Virus record (IMG/VR): IMGVR_UViG_2909303794_000011
Location: 1 to 51,950 of that record
Source of the DNA: a virus
Lineage: Duplodnaviria; Heunggongvirae; Uroviricota; Caudoviricetes
Reading direction: 5' to 3' (one strand)
Length of the DNA: 51,950 bases
Shown here piece after piece: positions 36,001 to 39,000 of the stretch; the first letter of the stretch is position 1, and each line of letters begins with the position of its first letter. The position numbers are program-made.

Positions 36001-39000
36001 CAAATGCCACGGTATCCGCATGCAGCTCGTCGTGATGCTTTCTGCACAAAGGCAACACAAAGAGGTCATGCGCTTTTGTACCCATTCCACCCTGACCGTG
36101 GCCTATCAGGTGGTGGGGATCATCAGCAGGCTTTCCACAACATGCACACGGCTGTGTCTTAACCCAGCGCGTGTACTTTTCGTTAACCCAGCGGCGGCGT
36201 TTTGGGCGTAACATAAAAGACTCCGGCGACTCCGGATCCACTTTCAGCGCCAGCACCTTTTTCGCTTTATCCTGGATGATGCTGGTGGCAGGAACCGAAG
36301 GCACAAGGTCACTTTCCCGGGTGACAGACGGCACAACAGGTTTCGGTAATCTCAGCGCCTTACGGGCTGCGCTTTCAGGTAAGGCATCCGCCAGGTCATT
36401 ACGAATCAGCCACCAGCACAGTTCAGGCATTGTCACGGCATGGTTATCATCAAAACCGAGATCCCGACGGACTACAGACAACACCCAGCGGGCACAGTTA
36501 TCCGTTGCCATTGATTCCAGCCGTTCCGTGAACTGATCGCGCAGCTGGTTATCGCAGTGCCAGCACAGACGGATTGCGCCCGGAGCGTGTCGCATTGTGG
36601 TCATGTTCTCGCTGTGCCAGTCGGAATGAGGCCACTGGCAGCCTTTTTCACGAAGTAACCAGCTTTCAAGACATTCCACGCCACCAGCACGACGGATCAC
36701 TGCCTCATTGCGGAACACGGCCCGAACGGCAGGATCATCCGCCAGCGGTTGTGATGCCACCGGAACGGCACCACTGGCGAAAGATGAATAACGTTCCGGC
36801 TCAGGCTCCAGCAGGACACGCCCCTGCATAAACAGGGGCATCAGCTCTGAACCTGGCCTGAACAATACGATCCCCATACGCGGGGCAATTTCAGGGGTCA
36901 GTAGTGCTCTCACGGCCACCTCAATGAACGGTATCGAGCAGCTTTAATAGCTCAGGGAATCGGGATTCGAAGAAATGCGGCTGCGTCTCGCGCGGATTTG
37001 CAGGACTGGTGATGTTCTTGCCGAACATGCAGCCTTTCGCTGTCAGCGACCAGAATTTTTTGATGTTGTTAATCGCGGTACGGCTGTATCGTTCGCGCTG
37101 CTCGACGATCCCCAGCTTCACCATCTGGTGATATGCCTGATTAGCCGTCAGGCGGATACCATACTGTTTCAGCAGTGCACTCAGTGACAGTGTCGGGCGA
37201 CTTGAGCCATCGTGTGCATCAGCAGGAGCATCAATGGCATAGCGCGGTGCCAGATTCGGTAAGCCAACAGCCTCCTGGAGTTTCTGACAGGCACCAAGCA
37301 CAGATGAGTTAGACAGGTTTAACTCCCGACGCATAAAGTCCAGCAGAATCACACCAGCCTGCATCTTGTCAGCAGCCTGTCCGGATAATTTTTCCGGTGC
37401 GCTGGTTACCATGTCGAAAGTACGGATCACCTTCAGATGGAATGACGGGCTGATCCACATTGCATAGGCATACACCAGTTCCTTGCAGACATAAGTTCCC
37501 CGTTCATTTCCCCCATGAATCACACTCACCGGGTCAACACCCAAATTCTGGGTGTTGGTCAATTCATGAACAAGTTCAATAGTTTGTTGGCTGGAAATAA
37601 ACTTTCCTGGCTCCTTGGTTCTGGCATTTGCACCAGATGCTACTGCTGCGCGATGCAGATCGTTCAGGCTGTAACGCCCATAAGCATCACGACGAACTTC
37701 AATACCATCAATGACCATCAGATTATTCATACTTCGTTTCTCCTCTTGATCAGGCGGCTGCACCCGCCGTTTTCTCGTACTTACTGATAGTGATCTCGAC
37801 CTTCCCTTCCGGGATAACCGGTCCCCACTCCACCAGCATTCTTTTCACCTGACTGTCGTCTTCCCACACACCCGCGTGGGTCAGGGCGTCAAACAGCGCC
37901 TTGTTATAGTTGTCCAGATCGCGGATCCGGTTATCCGGCGGAAACAACACGATCTCCACTGAAGCAGGTGCCGACGTTGGTTTCGGCAAACGACGTAACT
38001 GCTCAACTATTGCTGCGCACGCCGCGCTCTGGAATTTTCACCCCGCCGCGCTTATCAGGCTCTTACCTGCAAACGCCCCTTTGTTGGGATGTCGCCAGTA
38101 CGTGTTCACGCTGGGCGGAAAAGGCAGAATCAGCTTCATACTTTCATGCCCCTCTCATGTAACCAGTGGGCTGCACACAGCCTGGCGTTTTCCTCACCGG
38201 CAAGCAGTGAGCGGATAATCCCGACCGCCTCGCTGTCGTCGTCCTTCACCGCGGTATGAAGCGTTATCCCCCGGGCCACGCCACGCTTTATCGTGATGAC
38301 GCCTTTTTTCTCCAGTGCGCGAAGATGCTCCACCGCTGCATTCACCGAACGGTATCCCAGCATGGTTGCCACCTCCTGATTGGTTGGCGGAAAGCCACGT
38401 TCTTGCTGGTAAGAAATCAGCATATCCAGCACCTGCTGCTGGCATTGAGTTAACGTCGTCATTAAGCCCCCACGTAATTCCCTGACAGATACCATTCATC
38501 ACCAGATACAGCGCGCTTGCTGCTTTTCCGTAAGCACAGCTCACGACGCGCCAGAAAGTTGTTTCGTTCTGGCTGGGAGTGACTTTCACGGAATGCCGCC
38601 ATCCACACCGTTGCAGCACGACGGTATAACCCCCTCGACTCCAGTTCTTCAGCCTGGCGGGTCAGGCATAAAATCACCCGGGGATCGTTAGTGCCGACAT
38701 AGAAATTGCGCACAGGTCTGGTTTCACGAACTGGTTGTGGTTCCGGCTCTTGCGCTCTCTCAGTCAGGCGCGGGAAATGTCTGCGTGTATCTCCTTCACA
38801 ACGGTGAGCCACACGCCCACTCTGACGTAACTTGCTTGCTGACTGCAGTACGCGCTGCCGTGAGTAACCAGCAAAAGCATCCGCAATGTCTCCGGAAGTA
38901 CACCCCGGATGGGCTTCAATGAATTTCTGAACTTCATTCAAAAGACTCATAATCACCCCCTGAATCCTGCCGGGATCTGGCTGTAGTCCACGTTGTCGTA

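Follow-up and report, generated by a model that had tools for sequence, protein, structure and literature searches.

The rusA locus and its internal stop

The window analysed here is a stretch of 51,950 nucleotides (nt) of Caudoviricetes DNA, positions 1 to 51,950 of the IMG/VR record IMGVR_UViG_2909303794_000011. Between genes for a LexA-like protein and a KilA-N domain protein it carries a rusA resolvase gene (37750–38139), the frame of which is broken by one in-frame TGA. A previous, sequence-only reading of the window had described a RusA-like frame of about 130 codons, interrupted only by the TGA at 38038–38040 and still coupled through its start codon to the upstream gene. Our translation bears out both points. 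That reading is accurate as a description, although it left the strand unstated: the gene lies on the minus strand, and plus-strand translation of 37750–38139 gives noise.

Translated on the minus strand from 38139 to 37750, the locus reads MKLILPFPPSVNTYWRHPNKGAFAGKSLISAAG, a stop, KFQSAACAAIVEQLRRLPKPTSAPASVEIVLFPPDNRIRDLDNYNKALFDALTHAGVWEDDSQVKRMLVEWGPVIPEGKVEITISKYEKTAGAAA and a second stop. This is a coherent RusA-family frame of 129 sense positions followed by the terminal TGA (37752–37750), and codon 34 is its sole internal stop. The internal TGA runs from 38040 to 38038 and reads TCA on the plus strand. The start ATG (38139–38137) overlaps the TGA stop (38138–38136) of the LexA-like gene, forming an ATGA motif. 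On the other side, the KilA-N gene begins 20 nt past the rusA stop and has its own strong Shine-Dalgarno sequence (AAGAGGAG). The features of the locus are listed below, with their basis in brackets.

37750..38139, minus strand: rusA pseudogene, a full-length RusA-family frame with one internal stop (translation, 1-base difference from WP_000767113.1, Pfam, PDB)
38038..38040, minus strand: codon 34, a premature TGA that arose from CGA (Arg) through C→T at window position 38040, where the plus strand has A (allele comparison)
38041..38139, minus strand: the 33 codons that are still translatable, covering the β1 strand and the DNA-contacting loop region, without a catalytic residue (alignment to E. 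coli RusA)
37753..38037, minus strand: untranslated C-terminal remnant, codons 35–129, which holds the catalytic residues (alignment to E. coli RusA; Pfam)
37920–37918, 37914–37912, 37902–37900 and 37860–37855, minus strand: catalytic residues D74, D76, K80 and D94/D95, respectively (alignment)
38136..38139, minus strand: ATGA overlap of the upstream stop and the rusA start, translational coupling (junction sequence)
38136..38462, minus strand: upstream neighbour, intact, LexA DNA-binding-domain protein, 108 amino acids (aa) in annotated relatives (Pfam PF01726, 68.9 bits; annotation of relatives)
36921..37730, minus strand: downstream neighbour, intact, KilA-N domain protein (Pfam PF04383, 79.1 bits; annotation of relatives)

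The protein obtained by repairing codon 34 matches the Pfam RusA profile (PF05866) over positions 1–123 of 124 with 56.4 bits, against a cutoff of 22.8. The C-terminal remnant alone reaches 47.7 bits, and the 33-aa N-terminal peptide has no match in Pfam. Among known structures, the repaired protein finds the Protein Data Bank (PDB) entries 1Q8R (E=3.8e-18, 39% identity over 118 residues) and 2H8C. Both represent RusA of E. coli K-12, encoded by the DLP12 prophage, which shares the Pfam family, fold and catalytic residues with the window frame. On sequence grounds, membership of the locus in the RusA family is firm.

In E. coli RusA, mutagenesis has identified D70, D72, K76 and D90/D91 as critical, and R69 is important for DNA binding (PMC1636454). 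These residues align to D74, D76, K80, D94/D95 and R73 of the window frame, and all of them are encoded 3' of the premature stop. Because every catalytic residue is encoded downstream of the stop, the 33-residue product should be inactive. An uninterrupted frame of ~120–130 aa is not present, and we classify the locus from its sequence as a pseudogene of the family and not as a functional member. The K-12 gene is intact, silent for want of transcription, and can be activated by insertion sequence (IS) elements (PMC1636454). In contrast, the window gene presumably shares in the transcription of the early-right operon, yet it is cut short by a stop codon.

Origin and distribution of the stop allele

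We searched phage records and 5,426 complete E. coli genomes by megablast with 601 nt around the gene. The query matches 51 phage records and 2,299 of the E. coli genomes, and the gene is annotated throughout as a RusA-family resolvase. The best match, from E. coli Z1323HEC0475 (L001; WP_000767113.1), differs at one base in 601, which is the first base of codon 34. That codon is CGA (Arg) in the L001 gene (L001:3112–3501) and TGA in the window, the only difference across 390 nt. The 129-aa WP_000767113.1 is accordingly identical to the repaired window frame. Other RusA proteins of the SfV/mEp460/phage cdtI group, such as mEp460 gp47 and cdtI orf49, are nearly so. All are uninterrupted and have Arg34, and the group shares the synteny of the window and the ATGA coupling to the LexA-like gene. 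In mEp460 and PhiR63_1, codon 34 is CGC. The rusA of phage cdtI and that of the window differ at 15 nt, made up of the C/T at nt 100 and 14 others, and at four amino-acid positions.

With the repaired protein as query, IMG/VR yielded 592 relatives, of which the best 80 were used for allele analysis. Codon 34 is CGA in 49 of them and CGC in 31, so that Arg occupies the position in 80/80; this is the alignment with intact rusA homologues that the sequence-only reading had proposed. Among the 80 alleles there are 55 DNA haplotypes; of their 52 segregating sites, 45 fall at third and 7 at first codon positions. Nevertheless, one and the same mature protein is encoded by all of them, and one allele is distinguished only by a lost terminal stop codon. 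Since 52 segregating sites leave the mature protein unchanged, the intact gene is clearly under purifying selection. Judged from these alleles, TGA is the derived state. We also looked for a natural gene boundary at codon 34 among the homologues, an observation that would have spoken against an interrupted gene. There is none: all annotated relatives have a single coding sequence of 390 or 396 nt, rusA copies split at this point represent the same TGA allele only, and the interpretation as an interrupted gene stands.

To count carriers of the T, we used a query of 55 nt, designed so that any 28-nt megablast seed includes the variant base. A first census with a 61-nt query was dropped, as the T allele of the SfIV type differs at nt 72 and would hide among 98.4% matches. 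The 55-nt query finds one of the 5,426 complete E. coli genomes, CFSAN061762 (NZ_CP042901.1, CA898_RS18370). There, PGAP annotates the copy as 'RusA family crossover junction endodeoxyribonuclease', pseudo, with an 'internal stop'. Among phage records it has three matches, namely the GenBank and RefSeq (NC_022749.1) entries of Shigella phage SfIV and a record of equal length, VIT_AJPSC. In these three records the stretch between gp43 and gp44 bears no annotation. The identical allele is thus already in GenBank (SfIV), and it is already annotated in RefSeq as an internal-stop pseudogene. Exact-pattern scans located the T in two IMG/VR contigs and one metagenome contig, while no GTDB species representative matched in an exact scan with a 37-mer. 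The allele is rare, with one carrier among the ~2,300 complete E. coli genomes that have the gene.

Two of these records are close to the window. The IMG/VR contig L005 carries the T and is 99.99% identical over 7,077 nt, the single mismatch being at 39543; by its sequence it is a separate record of the same prophage lineage. In the metagenome contig L090, whose label gives ~33x coverage, rusA is identical to that of the window, and there are 19 mismatches in 2 kb of flanks.

Two further look-ups were rejected as carrier counts. The 33-aa N-terminal product is on record in 159 blocks. Of ten places inspected, nine are gene calls truncated by the end of a contig at rusA nt 98–101; in the tenth (L096), the rusA match ends likewise, at nt 99, but at an internal junction. 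The 79-aa open reading frame (ORF) occurs in a single contig, which itself begins inside the gene, and it is uninformative. Many short public contigs (L097–L105) end exactly at rusA nt 98–101, and nt 99, 100 and 102 are polymorphic. Presumably, such ends are assembly-graph breaks between co-resident prophage copies. They produce a spurious 33-aa 'protein' that resembles the truncated product of the TGA allele and is no evidence for it. L096 (GCA_003570625.1 QWNB01000215.1, 2028–4517) contains genes for Dam and the LexA-like protein and rusA nt 1–99, directly followed by a second Dam gene, a second LexA-like gene and a full-length rusA. The arrangement is either a tandem duplication or an assembly chimera.

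The T is found on two rusA backbones. In SfIV, L006 and CFSAN061762 it lies on a second backbone, which departs from the window synonymously at eight positions (nt 12, 15, 51, 72, 151, 192, 201 and 333) and has a distinct 3' end (...KYEKASCKLATR) and 131 codons, and the replication gene or module upstream is different. SfIV and CFSAN061762 share the CGA→TGA change at codon 34 with the window, are identical to it over the 55 nt around the stop, and have the same gene order (PerC, LexA-like, rusA, KilA-N, DUF968, Q). Both backbones also occur intact with CGA. The window type equals the L001/L085 haplotype with the T as its only change. Nearest to the SfIV type are WP_000767110.1 (strains ST3 and K56-43) and the IMG/VR haplotype that is most frequent, at a distance of 3 or 4 other synonymous sites. 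Because each backbone exists as an intact CGA allele, the differences between them probably predate the lesion. We considered whether the exclusively synonymous differences between the T alleles reflect selection after the stop arose, and rejected this, as they are also present among intact alleles.

Two histories are conceivable: a repeated C→T at this position, or transfer of the T by recombination of a short patch. The gene offers 11 possible nonsense transitions and 44 possible one-step nonsense changes, among them the change at codon 34, and the chance that independent strikes would hit the same nonsense transition is roughly 1 in 11. A conversion tract would need to fit between nt 72 and 151, and would thus be shorter than ~79 nt. 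C123 is common to both T alleles and is also frequent among intact alleles. Recombination is rampant around the gene, and the mosaicism is sharp: in a comparison of window positions 36250–39640 with L001, the 601 nt around rusA are identical save for the T, and the flanking 2.8 kb are ~2.7% diverged. This pattern indicates a recent exchange of a short segment of the nin region.

The sequence-only reading had listed a recent nonsense mutation as one possibility. 'Recent' holds in part: within the window lineage the gene has no other change, but several diverged contexts and the SfIV backbone share the allele.

Interpretation of the R34* allele

We consider it very probable that the rusA locus has truly lost its function and represents an ordinary nonsense pseudogene, R34* (CGA>TGA). 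A nonsense mutation was among the possibilities raised from the sequence alone, and it is the one that the comparison with the nearest intact allele supports. According to this interpretation, a single C→T transition would have turned Arg34 into an opal codon. Translation, still coupled to the LexA-like gene, would end after Gly33. The resulting 33-residue peptide would be devoid of helix α1, the dimer core and the catalytic residues, and no resolvase would be made beyond a trace of readthrough product. Since RusA would be an accessory function for these phages, the allele would be tolerated, persist, and travel with phages that are otherwise intact.

The downstream genes (KilA-N, DUF968 and Q) should be little affected. 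In the 288 nt that are newly untranslated, the C/G ratio is at most 1.14 in every 78-nt window and ~0.4–0.7 over the last ~140 nt. We expect little Rho-dependent polarity, because this stretch is not C-rich and the KilA-N gene has its own ribosome-binding site.

The evidence for dispensability of the gene comes from SfIV, which was induced by UV, formed plaques and lysogenised a new host (PMC3851460). The paper describing the phage makes no mention of the gene. Because SfIV carries the same allele and is inducible and plaque-forming, rusA is dispensable, and the lesion is compatible with a full phage life cycle.

Other lesions occur in the same gene family. We surveyed its decay through records of the C-terminal 69-aa product that gene callers predict for broken copies. 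Public contigs contain S56* (TCG>TAG; L106 and L114), K26* (AAG>TAG; L109) and C41* (TGC>TGA; L113), as well as single-base deletions at nt 64 (L108) and nt 21 (L112) and replacements of the 5' part (L107, L111 and L115). Some of these may be low-coverage errors; the L106 lesion, however, lies on a 15-kb contig. Inactivation by assorted point lesions is thus not unusual in this accessory gene, and R34* is one among several.

Three points weigh against a plain loss of function. The same lesion is present on two different rusA backbones, the frame shows no further damage in any carrier, and, of the stop codons, UGA is the leakiest in E. coli, so that a small amount of full-length R34W protein is to be expected. 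The second point has little force by itself: the flanks of the carriers differ by <1%, zero extra changes in 390 nt are expected, and their absence is not significant.

These points could be accommodated by a leaky allele, in which tRNA-Trp reads the TGA at a low rate to give RusA R34W, and the low dose of an enzyme potent even in small amounts suffices or is even favoured, so that the gene keeps its function. Published rates of UGA readthrough in E. coli are 1e-3 to 1e-2 in general and up to 2–4% in K-12 reporters; Trp is inserted by tRNA-Trp in competition with RF2 (PMC10570021). Residue 34 is not conserved (Arg in the window clade, Gln32 in K-12 RusA), and R34W might be tolerated. The presence of the allele on two backbones and in several contexts without secondary lesions, and the viability of its carrier SfIV, also fit. 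On the other hand, the stop is not conserved, given an Arg codon in all 80 sampled intact relatives and a single T among ~2,300 E. coli genomes. At less than 1% divergence, the missing secondary lesions carry no statistical weight, and the unrelated nonsense and frameshift lesions in other copies argue for simple dispensability. Downstream of the stop we found neither a stimulatory structure nor an Rfam element. Rfam has no family in the window segment 37600–38300 even at E<=10, the 71 nt from the stop fold no more stably than shuffled sequences (z = -0.11), and no SECIS-like or other recoding element follows the TGA. With no such RNA element and a stop that is not conserved, selenocysteine insertion and programmed readthrough as defined families are excluded. 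The low-level readthrough suggested by the sequence-only reading survives as generic leakiness, with no sign of programming in the sequence. Functional retention by a leaky stop is, in our judgement, unlikely.

A more specific proposal, which we regard as quite unlikely, is that R34* is an attenuated allele in circulation, which recurs or spreads by short-patch recombination on two backbones in viable phages. Readthrough at a level between a few per mille and a few per cent would then give a low, less harmful dose of a potent resolvase. This would represent natural tuning of expression via a leaky stop in a phage accessory gene, and would bear on how phages dose a potentially harmful nuclease. 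A sequencing or assembly error, with CGA and an intact rusA in the true genome, is very unlikely. The window gene is a single base apart from an intact allele, as such an error would require, but a substitution outside a homopolymer run is not typical of systematic error. The same T recurs in independent records: in L005 with one other mismatch in 7,077 nt, in the ~33x-labelled metagenome contig L090, in SfIV, in L006 and in the finished E. coli chromosome of CFSAN061762. On this basis, the sequencing error that the earlier reading had listed is improbable.

Still less do we favour a split or restarted gene, which we consider extremely unlikely. Here, translation would reinitiate at the TTG codon 51 or at the GTG/TTG codons 61–65, and the C-terminal fragment would be active alone or together with the 33-aa peptide. 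In-frame start codons do exist at positions 51, 61, 64 and 65, the TTG codon 65 is preceded by a GGAG at a distance of 6 nt, and the 79-aa fragment still matches positions 46–123 of the Pfam RusA profile. Apart from the weak TTG codon 65, however, none of the starts is preceded at a suitable distance by a convincing Shine-Dalgarno sequence. The fragment would lack β1, the DNA-contacting loop (E. coli RusA residues 15–28) and helix α1 at the dimer interface (PMC1636454), and a two-gene organisation is found in no homologue.

If the locus is a nonsense pseudogene, as we think, its proper label is rusA pseudogene (internal stop, R34*), and neither two short ORFs nor an intact resolvase. It would add a further natural case of RusA dispensability in lambdoid phages of the SfV/mEp460/cdtI group, and the T allele could serve as a lineage marker for a small set of prophages.

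Prophage context

The window extends from cdtC (4–573) to the integrase gene (50727–51950) and is essentially a whole prophage without the attachment-site flanks. From its gene content, the host element is a CDT-I-converting lambdoid prophage, with rusA in a nin-like early-right region. Over ~6.6–25 kb the window matches structural genes of lambda-like phages, and the early region is mEp460/SfV-like. The ORF list shows no interruption in the large ORFs for terminase, portal, capsid, tape measure, J and tail fibre, and the early-region neighbours of rusA are intact. Further genes identified in the window are:

4–2209, minus strand: cdtC/cdtB/cdtA (CDtoxinA and Exo_endo_phos domains), beyond the tail-fibre gene (domain matches)
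3336–4184 and 4411–5298, minus strand: Cif homologue and OspG/NleH-like kinase, respectively, beyond the tail-fibre gene
31490–33403, minus strand: DUF1737/SASA/DUF6645 carbohydrate esterase (NanS-p-like), between Q and the lysis genes
33505–34551, minus strand: N6_N4 DNA methylase, between Q and the lysis genes

Phage cdtI is the closest relative of the toxin cargo. Window positions 1–6599 are 99.0% identical to it, a left segment of 6.6 kb that includes cdtABC, cif, the NleH/OspG-like kinase gene and the tail fibre gene. Phage cdtI has an intact rusA (orf49), in which codon 34 is CGA. GenBank terms the Cif of phage cdtI 'truncated nonfunctional'; the Cif ORF of the window has 283 aa. ARAGORN finds no tRNA in the window, but three tRNA genes are present in the region of a related E. 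coli prophage that corresponds to 31490–34551.

Between the integrase and the early-left genes lies an ORF of 1,275 aa (46717–50544, minus strand). By alignment, its counterpart in related E. coli prophages is a gene that carries the annotation of the anti-phage defence sirtuin Dsr1, and the window ORF is a candidate Dsr1 on that basis. Phage cdtI has a different gene of 2.1 kb (orf33) at this place.

At the junction of the PerC and LexA-like genes (window position 38462), the window is without a Dam-like methyltransferase gene of ~650 nt, and the same is true of L001 and L002. In mEp460 and PhiR63_1 the Dam-like gene is located between the PerC-like and LexA-like genes, whereas in phage cdtI it is just upstream of both.

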